This document shows positions 3,022 to 18,688 of a DNA stretch of 22,406 bases, in pieces. The notes under the pieces were generated by a model. That model had not been told where the DNA came from. It saw nothing but the letters and a program-made list of their open reading frames with translations, and ran no database searches. Every line of letters begins with the position of its first letter. Within the stretch, counting starts at the first letter, position 1. The position numbers were made by a program, and so were the translations under genes. The DNA is from a virus. Lineage: Duplodnaviria > Heunggongvirae > Uroviricota > Caudoviricetes. The DNA is taken from the IMG/VR virus record IMGVR_UViG_2537562020_000008; one strand, given 5' to 3'.

Positions 3022-3959
3022 CCCCTGAATCCTGCCGGGATCTGGCTGTAGTCCACGTTGTCGTAACTGGCTTTGAAGTACGGGTCTTCGCGTTTTTCGG
3101 TGTACGTGCTGACGGACGGCGATAAGCGCAGGGAAAGCTCATCCCATTTTTCCCGCAGCTTCGACGGGCTGAGCACGTTACGGCACCAGAACGGATCGCG
3201 ACTGACGCGGCTGTACATCTCGCAGATTTGTTTATGAGTACGACCATCCTGCACACACATCAGGCGAATTTCGTTTGCCCAGGCTGTCCAGTTCGGTTCT
3301 TTGGGACGAACCACCTCGCCGTCACATTCGGCGGCCTGCTCGTACAGGGCGATGATTTTTTTCCAGAGCCACTGTGCGCAGGTCAAATCATCCTGCGTTC
3401 CCCACTGGCGCTTTTTAGGGCTGAATACAACCGCATCAGGATGGCGAGTTAAAAACTCCTGTTCAGCCGTCTGCGTGTCCGGTTGCGAAGCGTCCGGACG
3501 AGAAGTTTTTTTATCTGACGGATCATGTTTTGATTTTACTGACGGATCCCCGCCAGATTCTGACGGGTGAAAACCCGCTTTTTTGCCAGATTTCGACGCA
3601 TCAAATTTTGACGGGTCAGATTTTGATGCGTCAGATTTTGACGGGTCAGAATCTGACAGTTGAGAAAATGCCGCTGCCTGAAGCTTCGCAACGTTAAGCT
3701 GATAAACATTCGACGCATTGCGGTTACCCTGGCGACGCGCCTTACGCGTTAACCAGCCTTCTGCTTCCAGCCGTGCGATAGCCGTTCTGACGGTACTCAT
3801 CCCCGCGCCAATCTGACGGGCAATGGTTTCAATTGATGGCCAGCACACCCCTTCGTCATTACTGAAATCAGCCAGGCGGGCCATAATTGCCACGCTGGAT
3901 AATTTCATGCCTGACGCTGCGCAACCATCCCATACATAGCCGGTTAATTTAGTGCTCAT
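3018..3959 (-). CDS. Phage replication initiation protein (lambda O-like organiser: N-terminal HTH, repeat-rich linker, C-terminal domain)
   Basis: 313 aa; N-terminal HTH (WPSIETIARQIGAGMSTVRTAIARLEAEGWLTR); central repeats SDSDPSKSDASKSDPSKFDASKS encoded by the iteron DNA; sits downstream of cro and the CII-like gene as in lambdoid phages. Confidence 0.75.
   Translation of the reverse strand: MSTKLTGYVWDGCAASGMKLSSVAIMARLADFSNDEGVCWPSIETIARQIGAGMSTVRTAIARLEAEGWLTRKARRQGNRNASNVYQLNVAKLQAAAFSQLSDSDPSKSDASKSDPSKFDASKSGKKAGFHPSESGGDPSVKSKHDPSDKKTSRPDASQPDTQTAEQEFLTRHPDAVVFSPKKRQWGTQDDLTCAQWLWKKIIALYEQAAECDGEVVRPKEPNWTAWANEIRLMCVQDGRTHKQICEMYSRVSRDPFWCRNVLSPSKLREKWDELSLRLSPSVSTYTEKREDPYFKASYDNVDYSQIPAGFRG
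3513..3664. repeat. Iteron array (about 8 copies of a ~15-bp unit, core TGACGG/TGATGCG) inside the replication gene; putative phage origin
   Basis: Seen directly: attttgacgggtcag / attttgatgcgtcag / attttgacgggtcag / aatctgacagttgag in tandem at 3605..3664, with more degenerate copies at 3513..3604 and an A/T-rich stretch at about 3500..3512. Confidence 0.7.
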
Positions 3960-3968
3960 GACCGACCT

Positions 3969-4307
3969 CTATTTCCCTGAATTTACGACGAAACTGTTCG
4001 AGCGGACTGAAGCACTCATGCTCATAGCCTTCGCGGAGGTAGATAACCCGTTGTGTTTCCGGTTCCCAACGAATGACTCTGACGGGCACTCCGTAGTGAT
4101 CTTTGAACCAGCGGTTAACTTGTCGCAAAGGACTGTCTCCTTCTGCCGGTTGAAATCACCCACAGCCCACTCTGCAAAGCTGTGGGTTACAATTTCCCTG
4201 TCACCTGGTACATTTACTGCATAGCAATACTCCACCTTCGCTTTTCCACCCGGTACAGGAAGCGCAATCAGTTGCGAGCGACGGTAGTGTGTTGTTAAAC
4301 TGTTCAT
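3969..4307 (-). CDS. Hypothetical prophage protein (112 aa)
   Basis: ATGA overlap with the upstream CII-like gene supports translation. An alternative frame with a good RBS and TTG start near 4127 also exists, so the gene model is uncertain. Confidence 0.4.
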
Positions 4308-4855
4308 GCGTTAGTTTCTCCACAGTCACGACACGCCACGGCGCCCGGAGCTGCACACTCGCGGGCGTCATTACTTTCTGAAATGCAAAAGATTTTGTAG
4401 ACCAGTGCTGCATGCTCCTGCAGCTTCGAAATTGAGAGATATAGCTCGTCGTTAATTGCAGTTTTCTCATGCGGTTCCACTACACCGTCTTCGATTGCTG
4501 AACGAATCTGTTTTGAATAACTGCCGATCTGTTCAATGACCTCCAGCAGGCGTTGGTTGATATCGGCGTTGTCCACATCCTCGACATCAGGAAGAGACAC
4601 AAAGACGCCATTTGCAGACTGCGCCACAGCGTCAGCAATGAAGTGAGTTCCACCAGCACGTTGCAAAATCATTGCCCATCCCAGCGGGAAAATCTGATCG
4701 CCATCGGCACGAAGGCGGTTAAATAATGCGTTCTCTGTTACATCCAGCCAGTCAGCAGCTTCAGCGTACCCCCCCGGCAACGCTGCGATAGTTTTTCTGA
4801 CAGCTTTCACGTACCACTCAGGCTGTTTTTCTACTTTCCAGTGATGCTTACCCAC
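4304..4855 (-). CDS. Phage regulatory protein, CII-like (CP76 family) - tentative
   Basis: 183 aa immediately downstream of cro in the rightward operon; overall pattern ([35 protein letters not shown]...) resembles CP76-type CII regulators as I recall them. Confidence 0.5.
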
Positions 4856-5108
4856 GGTTCACCTCCTGTTCCTGTGGTTTAAACCCATTCTGGTTTTGGC
4901 TAGATTGAAAACGTGCCGGATAAAGAATCTGCATTTCGCTGACTTCACCCTTAAAAAAATTGGCTAAACGTTCTGCAAGCTCGATAGATGGAATCTGCTC
5001 CAGCCTCTCAATACGACTCAACGTCGCTGGATTGACTTGAACACCCGCAGCAACATGCTGCAAAGTGAAACCATGCGCCTTACGCACATTTCGTAATGGT
5101 GATTGCAT
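4848..5108 (-). CDS. cro: Cro-like HTH (XRE-family) repressor
   Basis: 86 aa; HTH motif GFTLQHVAAGVQVNPATLSRIERLEQIPSIELAERLANFF; divergent from the cI-like gene across an operator-rich 97-bp spacer. Confidence 0.8.
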   Translation of the reverse strand: MQSPLRNVRKAHGFTLQHVAAGVQVNPATLSRIERLEQIPSIELAERLANFFKGEVSEMQILYPARFQSSQNQNGFKPQEQEVNRG

Positions 5109-5205
5109 ACGCCCTCCAAATATTGCGCGTTATGCATGTTATTTCACGCAATTATTTTGCGCAAGTTGATTTGCTTATCACGCAATAAAGAAATGTAATA
5201 AACGC
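5109..5205. promoter_or_regulatory. Immunity-region operator/promoter region (OR-like) between cro and cI
   Basis: Seen directly: ttgcgcgttatgcat (5123..5137), cacgcaattattttgcg (5144..5160) and ttgcttatcacgcaa (5171..5185), sharing TTGC/GCAA half-sites. Confidence 0.7.
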
Positions 5206-5898
5206 ATGAACATAGGAAACCGAGTCAGACAACTTCGCCAAGCGAAGAACATGAAAATCGCCGATCTCGCTGAAGCGATAGGAGTAGATGCGGCGAACAT
5301 CTCGCGCTTAGAAACGGGTAAGCAAAAACAATTTACCGAACAAACACTGAGTAATATTGCCAAGAGCTTAGGTGTTGATATTGCTGATCTCTTTACCTCT
5401 GCCCACAAAAGTAATACTGTATATAAAAACAGTAATAATGAGGATGTTGCGCAGGTGAAGGATGTGTTCCGTATTGAAATGCTGGATATCAGTGCCAGTG
5501 CGGGAAATGGCCTTATCCAGGGCGGTGATGTCATTGATGTGATTCATGCCATCGAATACAGAACTGATAATGCTGTATCAATGTTCGGCGGACGACCAGC
5601 CAATCACATCAAAGTTATCAACGTTCGTGGGGACAGTATGTGTCCAACCATTGAGCCCGGAGATCTCATCTTCGTTGATGTCAGCATCAATCAGTTTGAT
5701 GGTGATGGTATATATGTCTTTGGTTTTGATGACAAAATATACGTTAAAAGACTTCAAATGATTCCTGACAAACTGCTGGTGATTTCTGATAACCAGATTT
5801 ACCGTGAATGGGGAATTACTAGCGAAAACGAACACCGATTCATGGTCTTTGGAAAGGTCTTAATCAGTCAGTCGCAAACCCTTAAGAGACATAATTAA
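5206..5898 (+). CDS. cI: cI-like prophage repressor (N-terminal XRE HTH + C-terminal LexA-like S24 peptidase domain)
   Basis: 230 aa; HTH (MKIADLAEAIGVDAANISRLETGK) and C-terminal S24-type region (VRGDSMCPTIEPGDLIFVD ... IYVKRL). Confidence 0.9.
   Translation: MNIGNRVRQLRQAKNMKIADLAEAIGVDAANISRLETGKQKQFTEQTLSNIAKSLGVDIADLFTSAHKSNTVYKNSNNEDVAQVKDVFRIEMLDISASAGNGLIQGGDVIDVIHAIEYRTDNAVSMFGGRPANHIKVINVRGDSMCPTIEPGDLIFVDVSINQFDGDGIYVFGFDDKIYVKRLQMIPDKLLVISDNQIYREWGITSENEHRFMVFGKVLISQSQTLKRHN
5415..5434. promoter_or_regulatory. Near-consensus SOS (LexA) box embedded in the cI coding sequence
   Basis: Seen directly: TACTGTATATAAAAACAGTA versus consensus TACTGTATATATATACAGTA; CTGT-N8-ACAG core intact. 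Confidence 0.5.
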
Positions 5899-5917
5899 CC
5901 TCAATATCCCATCCATC

Positions 5918-5942
5918 GGCCACCGAAAGGTGGCTTTTTATT
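5918..5942 (+). terminator. Rho-independent terminator downstream of cI
   Basis: GGCCACC-gaaa-GGTGGC hairpin followed by TTTTTATT, 20 nt after the cI stop. Confidence 0.75.
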
Positions 5943-5952
5943 ACCTATAAAT

Positions 5953-5989
5953 TTGCATATCTCGCAAATATCACTTGCATGTCTCGCAA
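5953..5989. promoter_or_regulatory. OL-like operator pair (two 15-bp TTGC-N7-GCAA sites, 22 bp apart)
   Basis: Seen directly: ttgcatatctcgcaa (5953..5967) and ttgcatgtctcgcaa (5975..5989), same half-sites as the cro/cI intergenic sites. Confidence 0.55.
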
Positions 5990-6175
5990 TTTAATTTTAT
6001 CTTTTGTTCCAGACCAACTACAGGATTACAACAAAATCTGGTTGCAACACGGTGCATGTGTCGTAAGCAGTCAGTAAATGTCAAAAACGAACAGGCAGGA
6101 CGCCCACGAAGTAGCCGCCTGGGGCATATGAAGTCCAGGATGATTCGTTGAGTCATGTTGTGCCACTAGGCACTC

Positions 6176-6472
6176 ATGTTAAAGCAGGTGTATGAAATGA
6201 AAGTCCAGATTTTAAACAATAACTGTGAAGTCGTTTGGTCATACGACATAGCCGCCCCTGTAGATCAGAGCGGCGATAGCTGGACCAATGGGAAACATCA
6301 GATTATGGCTGGAGTTGTGTTCTCTTTACGCCGTGCTTTGGAACAGGCTGAAGTATTTCCATCAGACCCTGAATGGAAATGGCCTTTTTCTATTTGTCCA
6401 AATTCGGAGAGCACATTTCAGAAAATTGGTCAGAAAGTCGCACTCGAAGAGCATCAGCCAACTGTTTCCTGA
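6176..6472 (+). CDS. Hypothetical moron protein (possible start at 6196, MKVQILNN...)
   Basis: ORF downstream of the OL-like sites at the position occupied by rexAB/sieB in lambdoid phages. Its 3' end overlaps the convergent ORF by ~80 bp, so one of the two may be mis-called. Confidence 0.35.
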   Translation: MLKQVYEMKVQILNNNCEVVWSYDIAAPVDQSGDSWTNGKHQIMAGVVFSLRRALEQAEVFPSDPEWKWPFSICPNSESTFQKIGQKVALEEHQPTVS

Positions 6473-6635
6473 TTTTTTCAGGTAACTCGTCGGCATCGCA
6501 GAAACAACAACGCTCGATCATGTTGAAAGCCGATTCGTAGAACTGTTTCTGCTGAGTGTCGCTGAGACAGGAAAAGAGCGACGTTACGATGATTTTATTA
6601 ATTGCATTATCAAGTTCTTTTTCATCAAAAGTCAT
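6390..6635 (-). CDS. Hypothetical small Cys-containing protein (81 aa)
   Basis: Good RBS (aaaaggaaaatcaaATG); contains CCFC; no family recognised. Confidence 0.45.
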   Translation of the reverse strand: MTFDEKELDNAINKIIVTSLFSCLSDTQQKQFYESAFNMIERCCFCDADELPEKIRKQLADALRVRLSDQFSEMCSPNLDK

Positions 6636-7072
6636 TTGATTTTCCTTTTATGTATACGGGCTTAAAAGGATACCACCGAGCCTGAAGTGGTGAAAAGACA
6701 GGCACATAACAGCTAAGTATTTTCAACCAAAGAGAATCCTTAGCGTTGTGGTGAATGCGGCTCAGCGCACGCGGGTTAAGGTTGAGGCTGACAGTCGACC
6801 TTCTGTGGATACCCACCCGTCTGGTGTGCAACCTTCGCCAGGCACCGGGAGGCACCCGGCACCACAACTTTATGCTGTGTGTAGTCCTGGCGGTACCAGT
6901 TTGTACCCTTGCTTCCGGCTGGTACCGTCCTTTTTACAAAACAGAGAAGAGCATCACCGGACGACGGGCTCATAACCCAATCCATCCGGGCGGCTGCCAC
7001 CGCAGGTGTTCTTCTCTGTTTTGTGGAGAAACTAATCGGCCTTGCAGGGTCGATATGATGAGGAGCAGCAAA

Positions 7073-7447
7073 ATGGCTAGCGAACGCAGTACTGATGTAC
7101 AGGCATTTATCGGGGAGCTGGACGGCGGCGTATTTGAAACCAAAATCGGCGCAGTTCTCAGTGAAGTCGCTTCCGGTGTGATGAACAGGAGGGACAGCTG
7201 ATAGAAACAGAAGCCACTGGAGCACCTCAAAAACACCATCATACACTAAATCAGTAAGTTGGCAGCATCACCCAAACTCTCATATGTTCGCCCGACTAAC
7301 CGCGGGAAAATTTCCGAAGAAGACACCACCGAAACGCCGATGTATGTCAATCGCGGTGGTCGCCTGACTATTCTGCAGGAAGACCAGGGACAATTACTGA
7401 CTCTTGCCGGTGAACCTGACGGAAAACTCCGCGCAGCAGGTCATTAA
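7073..7447 (+). pseudogene. Prophage gene split by a ~90-bp IS1-end remnant (5' part 7073..7182, 3' part 7273..7447)
   Basis: RBS gaggagcagcaaaATG at 7073; 5' fragment MASERSTDVQAFIGELDGGVFETKIGAVLSEVASGV stops inside the IS1-derived segment; 3' fragment KLSYVRPTNRGKISEED...GKLRAAGH resumes in the same frame after it. Confidence 0.4.
7183..7272 (-). mobile_element. IS1 left-end remnant (IRL plus ~65 bp; the rest of IS1 absent)
   Basis: Reverse complement reads GGTGATGCTGCCAACTTACTGATTTAGTGTATGATGGTGTTTTTGAGGTGCTCCAGTGGCTTCTGTTTCTATCAGCTGTCCCTCCTGTTCA, matching the IS1 terminus and start of insA as I recall it; similarity ends near 7183. Confidence 0.8.
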
Positions 7448-7512
7448 TATCGTTCTTAATTAACTGATTATTTATCTCATCACTGAATATCTTTATATAG
7501 TGAGGACTTATT

Positions 7513-8337
7513 ATGTCTCAGAACTTAGACGCAACCGCAATTAATCAAATCCATGCCCTTATTTCTGCTCAGGGTGTTAATGAAATTATCAGTAAGATTG
7601 GTGCCGATGCTGTGGCATTGCCTGAGAATTTCCGCATTCATGATCTGGAAAAATTTAATTTAAATCGCTTCCGTTTCCGTGGTGCGCTTTCCACTGCCAG
7701 CATCGATGACTTTACCCGTTATTCTAAAGATCTTGCAGATGAAGGCACCCGCTGCTTTATCGATGCTGATAATATGCGAGCCGTCAGTGTGCTTAACCTG
7801 GGTACTATTGATGAACCAGGTCACGCAGATAACACCGCCACTCTCAAACTGAAAAAGACAGCACCGTTCTCTGCCCTGTTGTCTGTTAACGGCGAGCGTA
7901 ACTCCCAGAAGTCACTGGCAGAATGGATTGAAGACTGGGCCGACTACCTTGTGGGCTTTGATGCTAATGGTGACGCCATTCAGGCAACAAAAGCGGCTGC
8001 GGCGGTCCGTAAAATCACGATTGAAGCAAACCAGACCGCTGATTTTGAAGACAATGACTTCAGCGGCAAACGCTCTCTGATGGAGTCTGTCGAAGCGAAG
8101 ACCAAAGACATTATGCCAGTGGCATTTGAATTTAAATGCATTCCGTTTGAAGGTCTGAAAGAACGTCCGTTTAAATTACGCCTCAGCATTATCACTGGCG
8201 ATCGTCCGGTACTGGTTCTGCGCATTATTCAGCTGGAGGCGGTGCAGGAAGAAATGGCTAACGAATTTCGTGATCTGCTTGTTGAGAAATTCAAGGACAG
8301 CAAAGTAGAAACCTTTATTGGTACTTTCACCGCCTGA
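7513..8337 (+). CDS. yfdQ: YfdQ-like prophage protein (DUF2303 family)
   Basis: 274 aa, the length of the CPS-53 prophage protein YfdQ, and followed by YfdR/S/T-like genes in the same order. Confidence 0.7.
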
Positions 8338-8465
8338 TTTCATTACTGCAAATGCCCCTGCGGGGGCATTTATGGAAACGTAATTAACTCAATAATCGCC
8401 TGATGGCGAGGGTTTTCTTTAACCAAAATTCAGCGCGGTGCAGCGCATATAAAGTGGAGAACAAA

Positions 8466-9002
8466 ATGTCATTTATTAAAACTTTTTCCGGGAAGCATTT
8501 TTATTATGACAAGATAAATAAAGACGACATCGTTATTAACGATATCGCGTTTTCCCTTTCAAATATCTGTCGCTTTGCCGGTCATCTTTCGCACTTCTAC
8601 AGCGTCGCCCAACATGCGGTTCTTTGCAGCCAGCTGGTGCCGCAGGAATTTGCTTTTGAAGCGTTAATGCATGATGCAACAGAAGCGTATTGCCAGGACA
8701 TTCCCGCACCACTGAAACGCCTTCTTCCTGACTATAAACGGATGGAAGAAAAAATAGACGCCGTAATCCGTGAGAAATACGGGTTACCTCCTGTTATGAG
8801 CACGCCAGTGAAATATGCCGATCTCATCATGCTGGCAACCGAACGCCGCGATCTCGGGCTTGATGATGGCTCTTTCTGGCCTGTACTGGAAGGTATCCCG
8901 GCAACAGAGATGTTCAACGTGATTCCACTGGCACCGGGCCATGCCTACGGGATGTTTATGGAACGCTTTAACGAGTTATCGGAGTTACGCAAATGCGCAT
9001 GA
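8466..9002 (+). CDS. yfdR: YfdR-like HD-domain protein (5'-deoxynucleotidase family)
   Basis: 178 aa from the ATG at 8466 (RBS GGAGAA); HD-like motif region (FAGHLSHFYSVAQHA ... ALMHDATEAY). The ORF track extends upstream to 8403. Confidence 0.7.
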   Translation: MSFIKTFSGKHFYYDKINKDDIVINDIAFSLSNICRFAGHLSHFYSVAQHAVLCSQLVPQEFAFEALMHDATEAYCQDIPAPLKRLLPDYKRMEEKIDAVIREKYGLPPVMSTPVKYADLIMLATERRDLGLDDGSFWPVLEGIPATEMFNVIPLAPGHAYGMFMERFNELSELRKCA

Positions 9003-9355
9003 ATGTTTTCGAAATGGAAGGGTTTCTTCGTGGGAGATGTGTACCGCGAGATCTGAAAGTAAATGAAACAGATGCTGAATACCTGGTGCGTAAATTCGAT
9101 GCGCTTGAAGCTAAATGTGCAGCACAGGAAAACAAAGTAATACCAGTGTCAACTGAACTGCCACCAGCAAATGAAAGTGTTTTGTTATTCGATGCTAACG
9201 GAGAAGGCTGGCTAATTGGCTGGCGTTCTCTCTGGTACACCTGGGGACAAAAAGAAACCGGAGAATGGCAGTGGACATTTCAGGTCGGGGACCTTGAAAA
9301 CGTCAATATCACTCACTGGGCAGTAATGCCAAAAGCACCGGAGGCTGGAGCATAA
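8993..9355 (+). CDS. yfdS: YfdS-like prophage protein
   Basis: 120 aa; overlaps the yfdR stop; Trp-rich C-terminus (WLIGWRSLWYTWGQKETGEWQW). Confidence 0.65.
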   Translation: MRMNVFEMEGFLRGRCVPRDLKVNETDAEYLVRKFDALEAKCAAQENKVIPVSTELPPANESVLLFDANGEGWLIGWRSLWYTWGQKETGEWQWTFQVGDLENVNITHWAVMPKAPEAGA

Positions 9356-9660
9356 TGACCACTTTTACCGACAAAGAACTGATTAAAGAAATTAAAGAGC
9401 GTATCAGCAGCCTTGACGTGCGAGACGATATTGAGCGCCGTGCTTATGAAATCGCACTCCTATCTCTGGAAGTAGAACCAGATGAACGCGAAGCTTATGA
9501 ATTATTCATGGAAAAGCGTTTCGGTGACTTAGTAGATCGTCGGAGAGCAAAAAACGGCGATAACGAATACATGGAATGGGATATGACTCTCGGTTGGATC
9601 GTCTGGCAGCAACGAGCTGGTATCCATTTTTCAACAATGTCACAGCAAGAGGTGAAATAA
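9355..9660 (+). CDS. yfdT: YfdT-like prophage protein
   Basis: 101 aa; start coupled to the yfdS stop. Confidence 0.65.
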   Translation: MTTFTDKELIKEIKERISSLDVRDDIERRAYEIALLSLEVEPDEREAYELFMEKRFGDLVDRRRAKNGDNEYMEWDMTLGWIVWQQRAGIHFSTMSQQEVK

Positions 9661-10010
9661 TGGAGCCATACAGCCTCACACTCGATGAGGCCTGTCATTT
9701 TCTCAAGATATCCAGACCGACTGCCATTAACTGGATACGCACAGGGCGTCTTCAGGCAACACGCAAAGATCCCACTAAGAATAAATCTCCTTACCTCACA
9801 ACACGACAAGCCTGCATTGCGGCTCTTCAGTCTCCGCTGCATACTGTCCAGGTGAGCGCGGGTGATGGCATAACAGAGGAAAGAAAATGTCACTCTTCCG
9901 CAGAGGTGAAATATGGTACGCCAGTTTCACATTGCCGAACGGTAAAAGATTTAAACAGTCTCTTGGAACAAAGGACAAAAGGCAGGCGACAGAACTCCAT
10001 GACAAGCTAA
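9660..10010 (+). CDS. xis: Excisionase (P22 Xis-like HTH)
   Basis: [40 protein letters not shown]... matches the P22-type Xis pattern; start shares a nucleotide with the yfdT stop (TAATG); 3' end overlaps the int start. Confidence 0.75.
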
Positions 10011-11050
10011 AGGCTGAAGCATGGCGGGTCAGCAAACTTGGTGAAATACCTGATATAACGTTCGAGGAAGCGTGTGTCAGGTGGCTTGAAGAGAAAGCAC
10101 ATAAAAAATCACTGGACGATGACAAAAGCCGGATCGGATTCTGGCTTCAACATTTCGCAGGAATGCAACTAAGAGACATTACTGAATCAAAAATTTATTC
10201 AGCAATGCAGAAAATGACGAACCGGCGTCATGAGGAAAACTGGAAACTCAGGGCAGAAGCATGCAGAAAAAAAGGGAAACCTGTTCCAGAATACACGCCA
10301 AAACCAGCGTCCGTTGCAACGAAGGCTACGCATCTTTCATTTATAAAGGCCCTACTAAGAGCCGCAGAGCGTGAATGGAAAATGCTGGATAAGGCACCAA
10401 TTATTAAAGTGCCTCAACCAAAGAATAAACGGATCCGCTGGCTGGAGCCCCATGAAGCACAAAGGCTGATTGATGAATGTCCGGAGCCATTAAAGTCTGT
10501 TGTTGAATTTGCACTGGCAACAGGCTTAAGACGCTCGAACATCATCAACCTTGAATGGCAACAAATAGATATGCAGCGCCGGGTGGCATGGATAAACCCG
10601 GAAGAGAGTAAATCAAACCGCGCAATCGGCGTTGCGCTGAATGATACTGCATGTCGCGTTTTGAAAAAACAAATCGGGAATCATCACCGTTGGGTATTTG
10701 TGTACAAGGAAAGCTGTACCAAACCAGACGGAACGAAAGCGCCAACAGTAAGGAAGATGCGGTATGACGCAAACACAGCCTGGAAAGCAGCGCTGAGACG
10801 GGCTGGTATTGATGATTTCAGATTTCACGACTTGAGACACACCTGGGCAAGTTGGCTGGTTCAAGCCGGAGTCCCGTTGTCAGTGTTACAGGAAATGGGA
10901 GGCTGGGAGTCTATCGAAATGGTTCGTCGATATGCTCACCTTGCACCTAATCACCTTACCGAACACGCACGGCAAATAGACTCGATCCTGAACCCATCGG
11001 TCCCAAATTCGTCCCAGTCAAAAAATAAGGAAGGTACTAATGATGTGTAA
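9887..11050 (+). CDS. int: Tyrosine integrase, P22-type
   Basis: 387 aa; [47 protein letters not shown]... and C-terminal [41 protein letters not shown] (catalytic R..HxxR..Y); abuts a tRNA-Thr 3' fragment. Confidence 0.9.
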
Positions 11051-11064
11051 CTTATTGATTTAAA

Positions 11065-11113
11065 TGGTGCCGATAATAGGAGTCGAACCTACGACCTTCG
11101 CATTACGAATGCG
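11065..11113 (-). other. att core: 3' 49 nt of a tRNA-Thr (thrW-type, anticodon CGT) gene; the 5' half of the tRNA is not present here
   Basis: Reverse complement CGCATTCGTAATGCGAAGGTCGTAGGTTCGACTCCTATTATCGGCACCA equals the anticodon-loop-to-CCA segment of tRNA-Thr(CGT) as recalled; the sequence 5' of it is not tRNA-like. Confidence 0.8.
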
Positions 11114-11201
11114 TAAATTGATCTTGTAAAATCAATACCTATCGAATTTAAATGGATTTTTTGCCACAATATTGCCACAGTTCGTTAGGAATCAGACAGA
11201 A

Positions 11202-12275
11202 ATGGCGACTATACGCAAACGTGGTAACTACCAATGGGAAGCTCAAATCCGTAAACGTGGTTTTCCCTCTCAAACCAAAACCTTTAACACCAAAGTAGAA
11301 GCAGAAGCTTGGGCCAAAATGATCGAGTCAGAAATGGCGAGAGGAGTTTGGCTTAGCCGCAGCGAAGCGGAATCTACGACATTGTATGAAGCCCTAACGC
11401 GATATGAAAAAGAGATTGTTCCCGACAAAAAAGGGGCAGTGCAAGACCGATCATTGGTGCGGATACTAAAAGGCACTCAGCTGGCGAAAAACTATATGGC
11501 CAGCATCAGGAGTGCCGATGTCGCCAAGCTGAGAGATGAATGGTTGAAAATCTATGCTCCTGCAACCGTTTTAAGGCGTTTGGCCTTACTTTCTCATGTA
11601 TTCAATGTTTCGCGGAAAGAATGGGGCATGGAGAGCCTGCTGAACCCCGTAGAGGCCATTCGTAAACCCCAACCCAAGAACTCCAGGACCAGACGCCTAG
11701 AAGCGCTGCCTGTAGTTTCTGAGAAAACCGGTGTTACGTCAGGAAAGCAAATAGCCAACGAGATCGAACATATCATCGCCGCAACACATTCATTAGTATT
11801 GCCAGCAATCATTCTTCTGGCGTTAGAGACAGCCATGCGCCGTAGCGAAATCGCAGAGCTTCGATGGCGCTTTATCGATCTTGATCGGCGAGTTGCACAT
11901 CTGCCGGATACTAAGAATGGTAATGCCCGCGATGTCCCTTTATCAACGAAAGCCATTACGATACTGTCCAGTCTCAAGGAACATTCTAAGCCAGCTGCTG
12001 ATAAGGTTTTTGATATGCGTGCAGACGCGATTACCCGAGCTTTTGACCGAGCTGTAAAACGAGCCAGAGAACGATACGAGAAAACAAACTCATTATGTGA
12101 TGAATCTTTCCTTAAAGATTTAAGATTTCATGACCTTCGACATGAAGCAACTTCTCGACTTGCTGAAATTTTCCCTATGCATGAACTAACCAAAATTACA
12201 GGACATAAAGATCCAAGAATGCTAATGCGGTATTATCATCCAAAAGCTGAAGATTTGGCGTTAAAGTTGAAATAA
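11202..12275 (+). CDS. Second tyrosine recombinase/integrase (island integrase; a longer ORF begins at 11172)
   Basis: RBS AGGAA before the ATG at 11202; C-terminal LRFHDLRHEATSRL ... LMRYYH catalytic signature. Confidence 0.8.
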   Translation: MATIRKRGNYQWEAQIRKRGFPSQTKTFNTKVEAEAWAKMIESEMARGVWLSRSEAESTTLYEALTRYEKEIVPDKKGAVQDRSLVRILKGTQLAKNYMASIRSADVAKLRDEWLKIYAPATVLRRLALLSHVFNVSRKEWGMESLLNPVEAIRKPQPKNSRTRRLEALPVVSEKTGVTSGKQIANEIEHIIAATHSLVLPAIILLALETAMRRSEIAELRWRFIDLDRRVAHLPDTKNGNARDVPLSTKAITILSSLKEHSKPAADKVFDMRADAITRAFDRAVKRARERYEKTNSLCDESFLKDLRFHDLRHEATSRLAEIFPMHELTKITGHKDPRMLMRYYHPKAEDLALKLK

Positions 12276-12284
12276 GGACGTTGT

Positions 12285-13061
12285 ATGGATTATAAAAATA
12301 AGTTAGTTGATGCATCACCAAAATTAAACAACCCTCAACTATTGGCTATAATATACTTAATACCTTTTGGATACTTGATTGTAGAAAACCCATTATGGCT
12401 AGAAAATATATACATTGCCGCTCCAATTTTCCTATCATCTATAGCTTTATTAACCAGTGTATACATAGGATATCGTGATTTATTAAATAAAGTATTTAAT
12501 AATGCAGTAGTTAAATGGGGCGTAACTGGCTTTACATATTCCGTATGCTTATGGATCGCAAAGTTTAAGCTTGACATAGCTTATGGTATAGTCCCAGAAA
12601 ACCTTAATTACTCGACATTAGCTTATGCTTTCATGCTCTCATTTCCAATAGGGGCAATGATTTGTGCAATTACAGTCTATATATACATATTTTTGCGAGA
12701 TGTATCCCCAGCAAAAATAGTAATATCCTCTATGATTTCAGTATATATTGGAAGCTTGGCTCAACATCATATACAGATGAACAATCTTCCTGAAAAAATA
12801 ATATTAATAGGACTTATAATTATGGTCCCCTATAACATGGTCAATTTAGCTAGTTCATTAGTTATTAAAAGGAAATTTAATTTTAATCGTTTAGTATCAG
12901 GCTTATCCCTTTTTGCTGTGTCAGTTGCTCTTTTTATTATTAGCATGACAGCAATGAAATACATTGAAAGATTTCAAGAAAAGTTTATTTTTCTCGATGC
13001 AAGAACATCTACGACATGTGGTAGCTCAGAAAGCAAATCTCTTTATATTGAAAAAAAATGA
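12285..13061 (+). CDS. Polytopic inner-membrane protein, unknown function
   Basis: 258 aa with several long hydrophobic segments; starts 10 nt after the integrase stop with an AAGGA RBS; AT-rich codon usage. Confidence 0.6.
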   Translation: MDYKNKLVDASPKLNNPQLLAIIYLIPFGYLIVENPLWLENIYIAAPIFLSSIALLTSVYIGYRDLLNKVFNNAVVKWGVTGFTYSVCLWIAKFKLDIAYGIVPENLNYSTLAYAFMLSFPIGAMICAITVYIYIFLRDVSPAKIVISSMISVYIGSLAQHHIQMNNLPEKIILIGLIIMVPYNMVNLASSLVIKRKFNFNRLVSGLSLFAVSVALFIISMTAMKYIERFQEKFIFLDARTSTTCGSSESKSLYIEKK

Positions 13062-13162
13062 AAATCAGTGTTATAAAATATCAGGAAATAAATTCTCGGA
13101 GTTAAGACTAACTCTTGTAGATAAAAACATCTTGAATATAAATAATAAAGGCACTTCAACTT

Positions 13163-13390
13163 ATGAACAAAAATAACCCTGCTAATTCATTTTCTATAGA
13201 AGCAAGGAAAGAAGCTTTTCGGAGAGCTGAAGCCAGTCTTTTTTTATCAAGTAAAGATCCCAAAGGCTCCTCATTTTTTAATGAAATAAAAACTAAGGTA
13301 ATCAATGGAGAGCTAACCTATGAAGAGGCAAAGAGAGAAGTATTAAATTATCACATTGAACAATCTAAAAATCAAAATAAAAGAGGCTAA
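13163..13390 (+). CDS. Small VbhA-like (Fic-antitoxin fold) protein - tentative; canonical inhibitory Glu motif not evident
   Basis: 75 aa; RRAEASLFLSS ... VINGELTYEEAKREVLNYH parallels VbhA (ARNALASQRLEG ... VVVGELETSDVIKDLMERI) by eye. Confidence 0.4.
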   Translation: MNKNNPANSFSIEARKEAFRRAEASLFLSSKDPKGSSFFNEIKTKVINGELTYEEAKREVLNYHIEQSKNQNKRG

Positions 13391-13406
13391 CATTTAGTTA
13401 GCCTCT
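13382..13406 (-). terminator. Hairpin terminator for the minus-strand 70-aa gene, overlapping the 3' end of the plus-strand small gene
   Basis: AGAGGCTAAC-attta-GTTAGCCTCT perfect 10-bp stem; a U-rich tract follows on the minus-strand transcript. Confidence 0.5.
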
Positions 13407-13411
13407 TCTCA

Positions 13412-13624
13412 CTAGTGAGCTATTTTATAGTCCCTTAATGCATTTTTAAGTAACTCCGTTTGCTCATCAGCATCATCATAATTATAAATTCCCGTAGCAG
13501 AATAATACTCTTCGATGCATAGAATATTTATCAATGGTTCACAAATCTCTTTAATAAAATCCTTGTTGTTATCGGCAAAAATAATTTTTATTCCTTCCAA
13601 AACAAAGCTATTATAATCAGCCAT
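13412..13624 (-). CDS. Hypothetical small acidic protein (70 aa)
   Basis: Strong RBS (AGGAGGTGGATAATG); acidic composition; no family recognised. Confidence 0.55.
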   Translation of the reverse strand: MADYNSFVLEGIKIIFADNNKDFIKEICEPLINILCIEEYYSATGIYNYDDADEQTELLKNALRDYKIAH

Positions 13625-13693
13625 TATCCACCTCCTTACAGGTGTTTAGTGGAAGCGTCAGTTAACGTTACCGCGCTAACTGACGCGCCTAAA

Positions 13694-15097
13694 TCAAGAT
13701 TTTTTACTGCCAGTTAAACTATCACCCTCAAACTCATCCTGTTCGTGGTTAGTCTGACGATCGGCTGTGTGTTTACGTATTTGATTCGCTATTTCCCCAC
13801 CAACGGTCTGTTGTCTTCGGATAGTATTAGTACTTCCCTTCATCATCTGATACTCCGAAGCTCCGTTAGACAGCCCGCTCGCCATGTGAGAAGCCATGCG
13901 GCCAGCTCGTGAGAATGATGAAGCAAACCCCTGGCTTCCTCCGCTGACGCTACCTGTATTACTCCCTGCAGAAGAACCACCGGAACCGCCTGATGGTTGT
14001 CCTCCAGAAGTATCTACGGAACCGGTATCTTCCCCTCCGCCAAATCCTCCACCTGAACCACCTTTATCACCAGAACCAGATTCTTCGGCCATCGCCGCTT
14101 GTGCAGATTCAAATGCTGCTTTTAGAGCGGAAGCACCACCACTGACTTGAGCTGTAGCACTTATTGCCATTGCCCCAGCGCCACTGATTGCAGTAGTAGC
14201 AGCGCCAGTAATCATACCTGCTCCAAAACCACCGATCCCTTGTAAGGACGCTCCTCCAACAACGCCTGATAACAACAACGGTAATTTATTCGTCAATACT
14301 AAAAGAATAATTGACGCCAGAAGTAAAACAATAAGACTATTAAGATCAGGAATATCATTTTTAATAATAGAAAAATACTGATCTATAAATGATTGCCCAA
14401 TCCCAATGATTAATGTCATCGTAAATAACTGAATACCAATCGATAATACTGTGCGTAAGTAATTTATTGCTATATCAGAAGTCCATTTCGAGCCACCAAA
14501 CCCAAGCAAAATAACTCCTGCATAACACAACACCCATGCAGAAACTAACATTATTAGCATATTTATCGCGATAAGCGCCATTACTACTAATACTATTATC
14601 GCGACGGTTATCATAATGGTCGAAATCATTGGAGACCAAATTGATGCTGCTGAACTGACCTTTGTTAATATCACAAATGCCATATCCACTATGCTGGAGG
14701 GTGAAATACCAGTACTTGTTCCTAAAGCATTTGCTGCAAGTTGTCTCATTGAGTTAATTATAGATTGTGATATGGCTGGGCCGTTGATTAAAAGATAATA
14801 AAAAAAACCAATCACGGCAAAAAAACGAACTATTTCTGCAAGTGCACTGATTAAACCTTCCCCTTGCATCGCCAACATACCAAATGTCCAAACCATACTT
14901 ATTAATACCAACCCCCAGAAGAGCCAATTTGCATAATCACCAATTACTAATGACCATGTGCTGGCTACTTGCTGAAACTTATCTAATAACGTATCAAGTA
15001 ATCCGCTACTATCTAATTGACCAGCATAAGCATTTACAGAAAACAAAAAAAACATTCCTAAAAAAGTGAGCTTGCTTACTATTCTCATAATTACCAT
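13694..15097 (-). CDS. trbL: TrbL/VirB6-like type IV secretion protein (polytopic, Gly/Ser-rich C-terminal tail)
   Basis: 467 aa; multiple TM segments then a low-complexity tail (GSGGGFGGGEDTGSVDTSGGQPSGGSGGSS); directly follows trbJ and a trbK-like ORF, as in P-type Tra2 clusters. Alternative start at 15088. Confidence 0.75.
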   Translation of the reverse strand: MVIMRIVSKLTFLGMFFLFSVNAYAGQLDSSGLLDTLLDKFQQVASTWSLVIGDYANWLFWGLVLISMVWTFGMLAMQGEGLISALAEIVRFFAVIGFFYYLLINGPAISQSIINSMRQLAANALGTSTGISPSSIVDMAFVILTKVSSAASIWSPMISTIMITVAIIVLVVMALIAINMLIMLVSAWVLCYAGVILLGFGGSKWTSDIAINYLRTVLSIGIQLFTMTLIIGIGQSFIDQYFSIIKNDIPDLNSLIVLLLASIILLVLTNKLPLLLSGVVGGASLQGIGGFGAGMITGAATTAISGAGAMAISATAQVSGGASALKAAFESAQAAMAEESGSGDKGGSGGGFGGGEDTGSVDTSGGQPSGGSGGSSAGSNTGSVSGGSQGFASSFSRAGRMASHMASGLSNGASEYQMMKGSTNTIRRQQTVGGEIANQIRKHTADRQTNHEQDEFEGDSLTGSKKS

Positions 15098-15264
15098 TCT
15101 CGCTTAGGGCTAGGATTGTTATTGCCACGCAGGGCACATTTATCGTAGTTATGTTCGTTCAATTTATTCTCTGGCGTCGATAAACAATCTTCATCTTTTT
15201 TATCGCAAGAGCATAGAATTAATGAAATTATTAGAATAAAAATGACCAAAAGTTTATCTTTCAT
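15091..15264 (-). CDS. trbK: TrbK-like small lipoprotein (entry exclusion), 57 aa; below the ORF-track size cutoff
   Basis: Own translation: MKDKLLVIFILIISLILCSCDKKDEDCLSTPENKLNEHNYDKCALRGNNNPSPKREW; signal peptide with lipobox-like LCSC; lies between trbJ and trbL. Confidence 0.5.
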   Translation of the reverse strand: MKDKLLVIFILIISLILCSCDKKDEDCLSTPENKLNEHNYDKCALRGNNNPSPKREW

Positions 15265-15275
15265 TCAGCTCTCCC

Positions 15276-16070
15276 TCACCAAATTCGCTTCGGGCTTGGT
15301 GTGTTCTCGCCAGCTAACGCTTTTTCATCAGCGACTATTTGTTGGGCTTCTTTATCAGCCTCAGCCTGTGCCAGTGTTGCTGCAGCGTTTTGCTGAGCTA
15401 CCAGAAGCGAGCGGATTTGCAGCAACTGGTTCGTTTGAGCACTGGCAAGCTGGTTAGCGGCCTGAATAGCTTCCATTTGCCCTTGTGCGCCGGTTGCCTG
15501 CGTTTGCAAATCTGCAAGGTTGTCAGCATCGCTTTGCAGTGTTTCCTGCTGTTCGTCAAGAGCCTTAAATACAGCGTCATTGGCCTTTTTACGTGCCTCA
15601 GAGCTGTTCTGTTCAGCTTTGCGCAGTGCGCTAATTTCATCCGCAGTACATTCAACATTACTGTTAAAGCACGGTGATGAGCGGTAGTAATTCACGTCCT
15701 GATAACGTTTCAGATATGAATCAAGACTCCCGGCCTGGTTTTTGTAGTAATTTAGGGTGTCCTGCGCCTGCAACAATTTGTTGATGGTCGAATTGGCCTG
15801 ATCCCAGATATAGGCTGCAGGTGCGACTGTATTTTTGAGCATGTTTTCATACTGCTGCAGCTGCGTCTGGTACTGCTGGATCTGTTTTGCCACAGCCTGA
15901 ACGTTGTTGACTGCGCTGATTGTGGTCTGCACCACATTAGTACCATCGATTACAGGGATACCGGCTGTCGCCGGTAATGCCATGATGGACGCCAGGAAGG
16001 AAGCAGCTAATGATTTTTTAGCTGCTAAAATCCCTCTCAGTGATGAAAATACTCGGAGCATTAACTTCAT
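15276..16070 (-). CDS. trbJ: TrbJ/VirB5-like type IV secretion protein
   Basis: Signal peptide then GIPVIDGTNVVQTTISAVNNVQAVAKQIQQYQTQLQQYENMLKNT, matching the TrbJ signature as recalled; Gln-rich coiled-coil C-terminus. Confidence 0.8.
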   Translation of the reverse strand: MKLMLRVFSSLRGILAAKKSLAASFLASIMALPATAGIPVIDGTNVVQTTISAVNNVQAVAKQIQQYQTQLQQYENMLKNTVAPAAYIWDQANSTINKLLQAQDTLNYYKNQAGSLDSYLKRYQDVNYYRSSPCFNSNVECTADEISALRKAEQNSSEARKKANDAVFKALDEQQETLQSDADNLADLQTQATGAQGQMEAIQAANQLASAQTNQLLQIRSLLVAQQNAAATLAQAEADKEAQQIVADEKALAGENTPSPKRIW

Positions 16071-16151
16071 TTGCCCACCTCAAATTTAACTGATTATTAA
16101 TATTGAAAACTCGTACTTTTAACAAATACAGATATTTAGGGAACCATAAAT

Positions 16152-16517
16152 TTATTTATTCAAGATTCTATCCATAATATTTCTTAGTTCTTGTCTGGTT
16201 GATTCTATTTTAGCAAGCAACGTTTTTATCAATGAGGGTGAAAAATCAACTGTGCGTGGATCGTTAGCTAACCACAGTTTAAGTAACCCACCAAGTCGAC
16301 CAAGATCAGCATTTACTCGGCTAAGCTCTACAACCTGTTCAATATCTACCATAGACTCAACCTGATAACCCATTGCTACTTTACGAATGAAACTCGCTAC
16401 ACTTAAGCCGGATGCTTCTGCATTATCCTGGATTTGCGCTTTTTCATCTGGCAAACAATAAACTTTAATTGGTGTACTATTTTTTCTAGTCTGAGAAACG
16501 GTCATATCATTCTCCAT
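16152..16517 (-). CDS. mobC: MobC-like relaxosome accessory protein (ribbon-helix-helix)
   Basis: 121 aa; RHH-like N-terminus (KVYCLPDEKAQIQDNAEASGLSVASFIRKVAMG) and DLGRLGGLLKLWL resembling the MobC-family conserved segment. Confidence 0.55.
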   Translation of the reverse strand: MENDMTVSQTRKNSTPIKVYCLPDEKAQIQDNAEASGLSVASFIRKVAMGYQVESMVDIEQVVELSRVNADLGRLGGLLKLWLANDPRTVDFSPSLIKTLLAKIESTRQELRNIMDRILNK

Positions 16518-16584
16518 ACAGGCGGTAGCCGATCAGCCTCGCAGAGCAGGACTCCGTTGAGCAGCTCAGCTGCGAATAAGGGAA

Positions 16585-16635
16585 GGTAAAGTAGAAGCAC
16601 CGTTTACGGTGGGCCTACTTTACATATCCTGCCCT
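16585..16635. other. oriT-like site: 9-bp inverted repeat around an inner palindrome, followed by a MOBP-type nick motif ATCCTGC
   Basis: Seen directly: GTAAAGTAG-aagcaccgtttacggtgggc-CTACTTTAC then acatATCCTGCcc at 16626..16632; lies ~70 bp upstream of mobC. Confidence 0.4.
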
Positions 16636-16787
16636 ACATTTGCCGTTGTGAATCTGTGTACGTATTGTGTATTTCTGTGTACTCAGTGTGTTTTCCTAAA
16701 GCATTTGTGCAGGATTAGTAGTGTAAAAATGTGCAGCATATGTGTTTATTGGAATGGAAATTATTTGAATGCCCCTAAGAGATATTT

Positions 16788-17081
16788 TTATTCTCGCGGC
16801 TTGGGTTTTGGCGGCCTGCCACGTTTCCTTTGACATCTATTTATCTCTTTCGCTATATCGTCATTTTCTGTCTTTGACTCAACAGATTTATCTATCCAGT
16901 CCTTAACATCTTCTCTACGCCAGAGAAGACGTTTATTACCGGGAAGACGGCATCTTGGTGGAAGACATTTTGGATTTCGCGTTGCATCACTGCGGATACT
17001 TTTTACAGTTTTCTTTAATGCAAAAGCCAACTCTTCAACGGTTATAAGTTCTGGCATAACTGATTTCATCGAAGAACCCAT
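16788..17081 (-). CDS. Excisionase/AlpA-like HTH DNA-binding protein with basic AT-hook-like tail
   Basis: 97 aa; LITVEELAFALKKTVKSIRSDATRNPKCLPPRCRLPGNKRLLWRREDVKDWI is an AlpA/Xis-type HTH pattern; C-terminal RKRGRPPKPKPRE. Confidence 0.55.
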   Translation of the reverse strand: MGSSMKSVMPELITVEELAFALKKTVKSIRSDATRNPKCLPPRCRLPGNKRLLWRREDVKDWIDKSVESKTENDDIAKEINRCQRKRGRPPKPKPRE

Positions 17082-17103
17082 CTCTCAGTAGAAATTTGAG
17101 GAT

Positions 17104-17131
17104 TTTAGCGGCTAAAATTTTAGCCGCTAAA
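17104..17131. promoter_or_regulatory. Perfect 28-bp palindrome just upstream of the excisionase-like gene (operator or bidirectional hairpin)
   Basis: Seen directly: TTTAGCGGCTAAAA|TTTTAGCCGCTAAA. Confidence 0.45.
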
Positions 17132-17382
17132 GTTTGCTAACCAACGTTATGAATTGAGAATAATTAAAACTTACTGGCAAAAAGAATAATGTCAACAGGG
17201 TTTTTATTCATCGGATTCTTACTCCATATGAAATTGGTTTTATTGACCGATTTCTGAATGACACTAAGGTTTTAATAATTCCTTTAATCTTTTTGGTTAT
17301 ATAAAAGGTTAAAGATCAGGTTAGAGAGGTGTGGAAAAGCGATATATTCACTTGTTTACTATGACAATTTTAAATTATATCC

Positions 17383-17448
17383 GTACCTCAAATGTCATGA
17401 AAGCGTACCTCATATGTCATAAAGGCGTACCTCATATGTCATATAATA
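17383..17448. repeat. Three tandem copies of a 22-bp unit (GTACCTCATATGTCAT core)
   Basis: Seen directly: gtacctcaaatgtcatgaaagc / gtacctcatatgtcataaaggc / gtacctcatatgtcatataata. Confidence 0.85.
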
Positions 17449-17528
17449 AAAAATAAGCAAACAAGTTATACACAATATTATTAACAGAATCTGTGGATAA
17501 ATACACAGATTATACATGATAAAATAGA

Positions 17529-17734
17529 TTGTTTAGCTAAACTAAATAACAATAAATAAAATGAAACAAAATGTAAATAACAGGGGGGGTGTAGGTGACT
17601 TATAAATTTGGTTAGCTAACCTTTATAAGAAACACTGTTTGTAAATGATTCATTTCTGACAACGGATATATCGAATTTGAGTAAGAAAAACACTTCAACT
17701 AACCTTACTCTCTGATTTGTTTAGCTAAACAAAT
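17529..17734. promoter_or_regulatory. Three palindromes with a shared TTAGCTAA core upstream of the HigA-like gene (putative operators)
   Basis: Seen directly: ttgtttagctaaac (17529..17542), ggttagctaacc (17610..17621), atttgtttagctaaacaaat (17715..17734, perfect 20 bp). Confidence 0.5.
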
Positions 17735-17775
17735 TACTGTAAGGAATCCGATGACGTTAAAAAAAAGGGGGGGAT

Positions 17776-18033
17776 ATGAGGACAATAAATGCTGCACCTT
17801 CAACTGTCGGAGAGATTTTATACGAAGAATTCTTGAAACCATTGGATATGCCTCCCGCAAGACTTGCTGAACTGATGGATACATCATATGAAAAAATTTG
17901 GGAAATAATTAAAAATGAGCGAAATATAACTCTTGAAGAAGCTATTCAACTCTCGATAATTTTCAATACAGATGCATCTTTTTGGGTGAAACTGCAAGAG
18001 CTACATGAGGCATGGTTTAATAAACAAAAGTAA
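17776..18033 (+). CDS. HigA-like HTH (XRE-family antitoxin-type) regulator, no cognate toxin ORF detected
   Basis: 85 aa; VGEILYEEFLKPLDMPPARLAELMDTSYEKIWEIIKNERNITLEEAIQLSIIFNTDASFWVKLQ matches the HigA/VapI pattern; preceded by an A8G7 homopolymer pair. Confidence 0.65.
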   Translation: MRTINAAPSTVGEILYEEFLKPLDMPPARLAELMDTSYEKIWEIIKNERNITLEEAIQLSIIFNTDASFWVKLQELHEAWFNKQK

Positions 18034-18233
18034 GGTTATTCAATTAGATTACTTAGTACTAATACATAATTTGCTTTGAATAATACTCATACATTTCTAA
18101 CGACTTATTAAAGCGATAATATACTCGGACGACTGAGGATTAAAAAATCCGATCCTTGATGATGGGAACCTGCCATGACTAGGTAAGTCATTTTAGCAGT
18201 GGTACAGGCGACATTAAAAGCCGATATAAAGAA

Positions 18234-18266
18234 GCCCGACTGGTAAGATCGGGCCTTTTTATTTTT
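18234..18266 (+). terminator. Rho-independent terminator
   Basis: GCCCGA-ctggtaaga-TCGGGC hairpin followed by CTTTTTATTTTT. Confidence 0.6.
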
Positions 18267-18688
18267 CCACTCTGGCCTGAATAGAACATCCTACATTAGA
18301 CGTTAAGATCTTACATCTAATTATCCGAAACTACTAATGGATGCGTAGTTGCATTTGACCTGACCGCCCATTTGCGGGTTACTCTACCATCGCCAATAAA
18401 GTCCGGCTACTCGAATTCGGAAGTATTAGGCTATAGGTCATAAACCTGAATAACTGCTATGTGCTGAAGCGGATAAAGCTGACATCATTATGCACCAATC
18501 AACTCGGTGTAAGTCAGCTAGTTGGTGATGGAGTGACTTGTCAATAGTTGTAGCCCCTACCAGTGCATCGGAGATTCTTGAGTGTAACCTTAGTTGCATT
18601 AATCAGAAGTAAAGGAAACGTACTATGAAAATCAGTACTCTTAATCAAGAGATCCCCCGTTCTCTCACGGAAAAGGGGGATTGAATTT

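Follow-up and report, generated by a model that had tools for sequence, protein, structure and literature searches.

In a 22,406-nt stretch of DNA assigned to a tailed virus of the Caudoviricetes (IMG/VR record IMGVR_UViG_2537562020_000008; the whole stretch is referred to below as the window) a piece of a tRNA-Thr(CGT) gene is placed between two genes of tyrosine integrases, int1 and int2. The question raised by this locus is how two integrase genes came to flank a single tRNA fragment. The segment is, with a probability of about 0.9, the junction of two integrative elements that are independent of each other and form a tandem array in thrW, the gene of tRNA-Thr(CGT): a prophage of the P22/Sf type carrying int1 on the left and a 13.6-kb island carrying int2 on the right. 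The following features form the junction:

9887–11050, plus strand: int1, P22/Sf-type thrW-specific tyrosine integrase of 387 amino acids (Pfam PF00589 Phage_integrase, E = 3e-48)
11051–11064: spacer, start of the phage P' arm (matches SfIV attP and E1433); base 11064 counts in addition as base 50 of the island repeat
11065–11113, minus strand: 49-nt 3' piece of tRNA-Thr(CGT), read as the tRNA-proximal attachment (att) site of the prophage (attL) and the tRNA-distal att site of the island (attR)
11114–11201: arm of the island preceding int2 (the same sequence in FAM21845, whose island has a CP4-6-like element on its far side)
11202–12275, plus strand: int2, tyrosine integrase of the 13.6-kb island, 357 amino acids (Pfam PF00589 Phage_integrase, E = 1.5e-26)

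Structure of the junction

The 49-nt string TGGTGCCGATAATAGGAGTCGAACCTACGACCTTCGCATTACGAATGCG occupies positions 11065–11113; it is present as a single copy in the window and was found in 0 of 100 shuffles. It is exactly the reverse complement of positions 28–76 of tRNA-Thr(CGT), both of the K-12 thrW gene and of the intact tRNA-Thr genes of the genomes E8, FAM21845 and E1433, and addition of base 11064 extends the identity with the thrW region to 50 nt (11064–11113). The TAA stop codon of int1 (11048–11050) is separated from the piece by a spacer of 14 bp (11051–11064). On the other side the sequence beyond position 11113 reads TAAATTGATC... as against CTGCTCTACC... in the 5' half of the tRNA, i.e. 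the 5' half is not there. The ATG codon of int2 (11202) lies 88 bp past the piece, and the two integrase genes, both on the plus strand, are 151 bp apart. The G+C content to the right of int2 is 32–45%, while most of the left part has 46–55% with a dip to 42–43% at 5.0–6.5 kb. No tRNA gene was predicted by ARAGORN anywhere in the window.

The preliminary description, made from the letters of the window, had already stated the distance of 14 bp between the P22-type integrase and the 49-nt segment, the length of the match, the start of a second integrase in place of the 5' half of the tRNA and the AT-rich DNA headed by that integrase; all of this stands, and the match is not shorter on exact alignment. 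Its term "classic P22 att core" has to be narrowed: the P22/Sf core does lie inside the piece, but it is 46 nt long (PMC3636060), and the extra CGC comes from the repeat of the island. The statement that the two integrases are unrelated has to be given up, as int1 and int2 share 30% identity over 244 amino acids (E = 3e-18) and are by this measure distant members of one superfamily.

Phages of the Sf/P22 type integrate in thrW downstream of proA via the 46-nt core ATTCGTAATGCGAAGGTCGTAGGTTCGACTCCTATTATCGGCACCA (PMC3636060). Positions 11065–11110 of the window are the exact reverse complement of this published core (ATTCGTAATGCG...GGCACCA), and the three bases CGC beyond it, on the anticodon-stem side, are part of the island's own 49-nt repeat. 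Across the spacer of 14 bp and the core of 46 nt the window is near-identical to the attP site of phage SfIV: there is a single mismatch in the spacer, 13 of whose 14 bases agree with SfIV, and another in the 3' end of int1. All 14 spacer bases agree with the thrW–int1 junction of E1433. Past the core the two sequences diverge, SfIV continuing into the phage P arm and the window into CGC and the island arm. This right flank of the tRNA piece is the island arm as it is found in FAM21845. In the interval between int1 and int2 neither a consensus terminator nor a consensus sigma-70 promoter for int2 was predicted, and the absence of such consensus sites is no strong argument for either read-through or insulation.

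The RefSeq annotation (PGAP) places a 112-nt "tRNA-Ser" at the junction (window 11065–11176, minus strand) in E8, FAM21845 and MB19; most of the other island matches listed carry this label too. The annotated segment consists of the 3' piece of thrW and DNA of the island arm. ARAGORN finds no cloverleaf at this site, relaxed settings included, and the Rfam tRNA model gives 22.3 bits, which is under the gathering score of 29 bits; we attribute most of these 22.3 bits to the genuine 3' part of thrW. A real tRNA at the junction was rejected on the strength of both results, and the "tRNA-Ser" is most likely a false gene call.

The intact thrW gene and separate occurrence of the two elements

The region 9500–12700 of the window was compared by megablast with 5426 complete genomes of E. 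coli. The whole junction of int1, core and int2 is present in 14 of them, in five at 100% identity. A near-identical genome is that of E. coli E8, which matches positions 1–22125 of the window at 99.6% and the region 9500–12700 at 100%. In the orientation of the window its order is IS66, the prophage early region with xis, int1, the tRNA piece, int2, the 13.6-kb island, an intact tRNA-Thr gene, proA and proB. The intact gene (E8 locus L001, 35184–35259) is thus found at the far end of the island, beside proA and 13.6 kb to the right of the junction, past the end of the window. This bears out the expectation of the preliminary description that an intact thrW lies outside the window, and the search for further core copies which it had proposed revealed in E8, besides the intact gene, a third, inverted copy.

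In E1433 the prophage remnant, truncated by IS66 in the same way and with identical protein accessions, directly adjoins an intact thrW. Its two flanks agree with those of E8 to 99.955% and 99.968%, and the overlap of the two alignments is exactly the 50-nt repeat. The difference between the genomes is 13,618 bp, that is the island and one repeat. The island in turn is found without the phage in FAM21845, where it lies between thrW and a CP4-6-like element, and in the distal position in STO_Bone1B, where it lies between the 46-nt repeat of another island and yagP. int1 lies directly on an intact thrW in all 60 genomes listed from a search with thrW and int1 as the query, of which at least 80% is covered in 1327 genomes. 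Each element therefore occurs alone at thrW with its boundaries at the repeat. Because the elements occur apart (E1433, FAM21845, STO_Bone1B) and the difference between E8 and E1433 is so precise, they can be considered independent. The preliminary description had left the choice between successive insertion and a fused composite element; successive insertion is supported by the separate occurrence and the 13,618-bp difference, and a single fused element is unlikely.

The surrounding order (proA, thrW ... yagP, paoD) is that of the native thrW locus, and the island resides in thrW in all the E. coli genomes inspected. In at least seven genomes the left end of the island adjoins a 46-nt core without an annotated tRNA; the one inspected, STO_Bone1B, has just the 46-nt core at this junction. 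The elements of thrW evidently stack in more than one order. Two of the 14 genomes with the int1–core–int2 junction were inspected and contain different prophages (E8 a remnant of the yfd type, MB19 one that is lambda/SfV-like), and TUM10008 has a divergent variant of the island. These differences point to repeated formation of the junction.

The third core copy of E8 lies outside the window (L001, 8254–8299). No distal prophage att site in direct orientation is present in E8; at its place this inverted copy forms an intact SfIV-type attP consisting of the P arm, the core and the 3' end of an integrase gene. This third integrase (L001, region 8254–9099) is truncated, has 57% amino acid identity to int1 and is situated near IS66, avs2, pinE and tail-fibre remnants. 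We read the inverted attP as an old phage–phage tandem junction which was later rearranged or inverted at IS66.

Proposed mechanism and alternative explanations

All the parts of a tandem array are recognizable at the locus: two elements with an integrase each (int1 and int2), a partial tRNA repeat between them (the 49-nt piece) and, in near-identical genomes and outside the window, an intact tRNA gene at the end of the array. Read in the sense of the tRNA, i.e. on the minus strand of the window, the array would consist of proA, intact thrW, the 13.6-kb island with int2 at its far end, the 49/50-nt copy, int1 and the SfIV-like prophage. The attP of each element would contain the 3' part of thrW (46 nt in the phage and 49–50 nt in the island), so that recombination by its own integrase would rebuild the tRNA gene at one end and leave a partial copy at the far end, and the next element could enter either of the tRNA copies. 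The segment 11065–11113 would accordingly act both as the tRNA-side att of the prophage and as the distal att of the island, with the phage P' arm on its left and the island arm on its right. Both repeats begin in the anticodon stem-loop, where the crossover of tRNA-targeting integrases is expected, and the crossover would take place there in the present case also. The prophage was probably the first to integrate, the island having entered the rebuilt thrW later; this order is suggested as the simplest history because E8 and E1433 share the decayed prophage and differ only by the island. Int2 may be an integrase that is currently active.

Several observations weigh against this explanation or limit it. 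The position of the intact thrW was taken from near-identical genomes, and the window differs from E8 by an insertion of IS1 at 22125, by 63 mismatches and by 18 indels. The core copies contain no polymorphism by which the events could be dated; an attempt to order the insertions in this way gave no signal, all copies in the E8 lineage being identical. The difference between E8 and E1433 is not polarised by phylogeny, and a precise loss of the island in E1433 is an alternative to its gain in E8. Finally, normal excision of the prophage is no longer possible because its distal part was rearranged by IS66: a complete excisable prophage with both att arms is not present, the IS66 element cutting it at the RusA gene and the P arm of E8 being inverted beyond this insertion sequence (IS).

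A very different origin would be a single fused composite element, excising and integrating as a unit via the outer att copies. The two integrase genes are indeed co-oriented with no consensus terminator or promoter between them, the junction recurs in 14 genomes, and joint excision from the outer sites is known in other tandem arrays. Such an element is nevertheless most unlikely, since each of its parts occurs alone at thrW elsewhere, the junction joins different prophages with different variants of the island, and the island alone, bounded exactly by the repeats, distinguishes E8 from E1433; besides, the prophage remnant is truncated and its distal arm has been inverted or lost. The same co-orientation, with a distance of 151 bp and neither a predicted terminator nor a consensus sigma-70 promoter for int2, might also be expected if the island were a satellite which targets the attL of the prophage, int2 being switched on by read-through from the int operon and its mobility being tied to the induction of the phage. 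The anti-phage cargo of the island would suit such a satellite. Its genes are, however, of the conjugation type (traJ, trbJ, trbL and the traJ-II leader) and not of the phage type, its neighbours in FAM21845 and STO_Bone1B are not phages, and the repeats conserved immediately before int2 suggest that int2 has a regulation of its own. Related elements are induced by IncP plasmids and not by phages (bioRxiv 10.64898/2026.01.12.698999). We consider the satellite very unlikely.

Repeats of 49–50 nt can mislead assemblers, and the many small indels of the window relative to E8 would be in line with an artefact of assembly, or the junction might have arisen by chance homologous recombination between tRNA copies at unrelated loci. 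The probability of either is practically negligible: 14 complete genomes that were sequenced independently have the same junction, the two attP sites predict exactly the flanks that are observed, and the surrounding gene order is that of the native thrW locus. The tandem array of two independently inserted elements is therefore preferred over all three. An extension of it, which we regard as rather unlikely, is that the int2 island represents a hitherto undescribed family of tRNA-targeting mobilisable elements that is still active, PIME-like (see below) without alpA and repA, with an integrase gene that abuts the distal att site and is preceded by a conserved pair of TGCCACA repeats as operator; induction of the prophage could then trigger excision of the island via read-through from int1 to int2.

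Comparison with known systems

In E. coli thrW is among the listed hotspots of integration (PMC7545054). For the serotype-converting Shigella phages SfI and SfX a tandem was shown experimentally, SfI integrating at the attL of SfX in thrW (PMC3306764). The SfI/SfX tandem resembles the present array in the tRNA gene, in the 46-nt core and in the integrase, which is nearly the same as int1 (~99% identity to SfI Int); there the second element enters the rebuilt tRNA gene at the attL of the first one, as the island probably did here, and in both cases a partial tRNA copy lies between the two. It differs in that SfI and SfX are both phages with the same type of integrase, whereas here a non-phage island with an integrase of 30% identity and a repeat of 49–50 nt adjoins a decayed prophage. 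The module of P22 and SfIV is likewise recognizable: int1, the probable xis gene that overlaps it, the spacer of 14 bp and the core of 46 nt correspond to the P' arm side of the SfIV attP. The site differs from this module in that the island arm takes the place of the P arm, which makes it a junction and not an attP, and the gtr genes that are usual beside attP are absent.

The CP4-6 region of K-12, at the same locus, is built in the same way: an intact thrW is followed by an island whose intF starts beside the distal 49-nt repeat, and 14 nt beyond this repeat lies the 3' end of an integrase gene of the P22 family. In contrast to the present locus, IntF has only 25% identity to Int2, the phage-type integrase is reduced to ~70 nt and the cargo is different. 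These ~70 nt after the distal CP4-6 repeat (K-12 locus L005, 36707–36830) resemble the 3' end of an integrase gene of the type of the third integrase of E8, with 91% identity over 115 nt including the core; the feature table for this stretch lists nothing there. By this K-12 has a decayed form of the two-integrase junction beyond CP4-6. Int2 itself was rejected as a relative of IntF, since the identity in the catalytic domain is 25% only.

The transfer genes of the island recall the Pseudomonadota integrative mobilisable elements (PIMEs), which contain int, alpA, repA, traJ/trbJ/trbL and defence cargo, are induced by IncP plasmids and are located next to guaA (bioRxiv 10.64898/2026.01.12.698999). 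Like PIMEs, the island is a small chromosomal element with an integrase, traJ/trbJ/trbL, a large accessory region and anti-phage cargo; trbJ and trbL accompany the integrase without a full secretion system, and there are no other transfer genes in the 13.6 kb. Unlike PIMEs, for which the guaA site and the core genes alpA and repA are characteristic, it uses thrW and has no detected alpA or repA: no match to AlpA or a replicase was obtained for any of the annotated island proteins scanned with Pfam, nor for the six of them run against NCBIfam, the matches of int2 being taken as integrase models. An unrecognised analogue of alpA or repA is possible, for instance the protein of 420 amino acids. 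The assignment of the island to PIMEs was rejected as two core genes and the integration site do not agree, and by its gene content the island is better described as PIME-like than as a member of the group.

The locus is thus a textbook tandem array in which only the particular pairing is new. The remaining novelty is the thrW-specific PIME-like island and, more speculatively, a transcriptional link from int1 to int2. The importance of the locus beyond annotation is little, but it is a clean natural example of a tRNA gene collecting elements successively. At least three or four distant lineages of tyrosine integrases target the segment of thrW from the anticodon to the 3' end, namely those of P22/Sf, IntF, Int2 and the type of the STO_Bone1B island. 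Such a region can be reliably divided into its separate elements at the partial tRNA copy, and the 13.6-kb island, with its 3HP-type defence and PIME-like transfer genes, is a conceivable target for mobilisation by IncP plasmids.

The prophage remnant

To the left of the junction the following features were recognized:

1–1240, minus strand: end of an IS66-family element with tnpB (199–546) and tnpA (546–1223), truncating the prophage at the RusA gene (open reading frames (ORFs) and E8 annotation)
1273–9660: early-region remnant of an SfIV/CPS-53-like lambdoid prophage (E8 annotation by alignment, Pfam)
9576–10010, plus strand: probable excisionase gene (xis), overlapping the start of int1 (NCBIfam excisionase domain)

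Over all 387 residues int1 has 99.7% amino acid identity to the integrase of the Shigella phage SfIV; for the integrases of SfII, SfI and SfV the value is ~99%, and for those of P22-like phages it is 90%. The ORF 9576–10010 matches the NCBIfam excisionase domain with E = 1.7e-5, which is under the curated cut-off, and its counterpart is annotated as excisionase in SfIV, SfII, SfI and SfV. The remnant comprises the truncated RusA gene, a methyltransferase gene, yfdN, replication genes, genes of cro-like and cI-like regulators and yfdP to yfdT; Pfam recognizes DUF2303 (YfdQ) and a YfdR-like protein. At the same positions of E8, tnpB and tnpA are annotated, followed by a partial RusA gene, and an identical remnant lies beside the intact thrW of E1433. 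A fragment of 91–95 bp inside the remnant (window 7182–7276) is 99–100% identical to IS1 copies of FAM21845.

The island

The part of the island downstream of int2 contains the following features:

12276–22124: island body (Pfam, NCBIfam, Rfam, PADLOC and E8 annotation)
13618–13690, plus strand: PtaRNA1, an antisense antitoxin RNA (Rfam, 48.6 bits)
16535–16634, minus strand: traJ-II leader RNA directly upstream of traJ (Rfam, 93 bits)
21241–21918 (minus strand) and 21923–22124: Hp3 and the start of Hp2 from the Hp1–Hp3 region, which in E8 lies at L001 31740–34484 (PADLOC)
22125–22406: IS1-like element interrupting the island inside Hp2, not at this position in E8

The combination of int2 with its upstream arm is present in 93–106 of the 5426 genomes (about 2%), always on the chromosome and in one copy per genome. 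A plasmid origin of int2 was considered and rejected, there being no close plasmid match (the best one is a partial match of 80% in a Pantoea megaplasmid). A literature search found no description of the int2 island at thrW.

The island body contains a hypothetical gene, the gene of a VbhA-like antitoxin, PtaRNA1, trbL, trbJ, traJ with the traJ-II leader, HigA, the unknown protein of 420 amino acids, a regulator of the MtlR family, Hp3 and the start of Hp2. The annotation of the whole 13.6-kb island in E8 lists trbL, trbJ, traJ, higA, the MtlR-family gene and three unnamed genes. TrbL was found by Pfam and TraJ by an NCBIfam equivalog model (E = 8e-48). TrbJ is known from the E8 annotation only, its ORF having no Pfam match, and the VbhA-like and HigA antitoxin genes are likewise based on that annotation. 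An ORF of 70 amino acids (13412–13624, minus strand) adjoins PtaRNA1 and may encode its toxin. At the end of the island next to thrW, three genes gave matches to the PADLOC models Hp1, Hp2 and Hp3 (E = 5e-176, 2e-158 and 3e-80, respectively); we take them to be the "3HP" anti-phage defence system. In FAM21845 the same cargo slot is filled by genes of an S8 peptidase and an AAA ATPase.

The sequence 22125–22406 is 91% identical to IS1 copies of FAM21845 and 98.6% identical to those of E1433. The gene following int2 is a single ORF of 296 amino acids in E8 and is split in the window (12285–13061 and 12964–13176). The split and the 18 gap openings relative to E8 over 22 kb may be due to indel errors of the assembly as much as to real pseudogenes.

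Putative Int2 sites and homologues in other genera

The arm upstream of int2 contains an AT-rich inverted repeat, TTGATCTTGTAAAATCAA (11121–11138), and two TGCCACA repeats (11162–11168 and 11173–11179), 11 bp apart and 23–40 nt upstream of the ATG codon of int2. The same TGCCACA pair, with equal spacing and orientation, is present at the other end of the island (E8 locus L001, 35085–35102). The pair is conserved or co-varies upstream of int2 homologues in seven genera: the double TGCCACA is kept in Enterobacter, Pantoea, Yersinia and Thiobacillus, and both copies change together in Pseudomonas (GTCCCA twice) and in a genome of the Moraxellaceae (GTCCAAAT twice). Since both copies co-vary, a protein-binding site is suggested, and the TGCCACA repeats are probably arm or operator sites of Int2.

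The int2 homologues of Enterobacter and Pantoea are also preceded by a 49-nt tRNA-Thr piece. In Pantoea the piece has the genus's own version of the tRNA-Thr sequence and is therefore host-derived att DNA. Upstream of the Pseudomonas homologue, at a larger distance, an apparent 3' fragment of tRNA-Thr(CGT) can be seen by eye. In Candidatus Pantoea haifensis (L009, 2860–5674) a tRNA piece, an int2 homologue and an intact tRNA-Thr gene are all found within ~2.8 kb, forming a minimal element. Before the Thiobacillus homologue an apparent tRNA-Ala(CGC)-like 3' piece can be made out by eye, and an intact tRNA-Ala(CGC) gene was found by ARAGORN upstream of the homologue in the Moraxellaceae. It seems from this that the int2 integrase family has moved between tRNAs whose anticodon stem-loops are alike.

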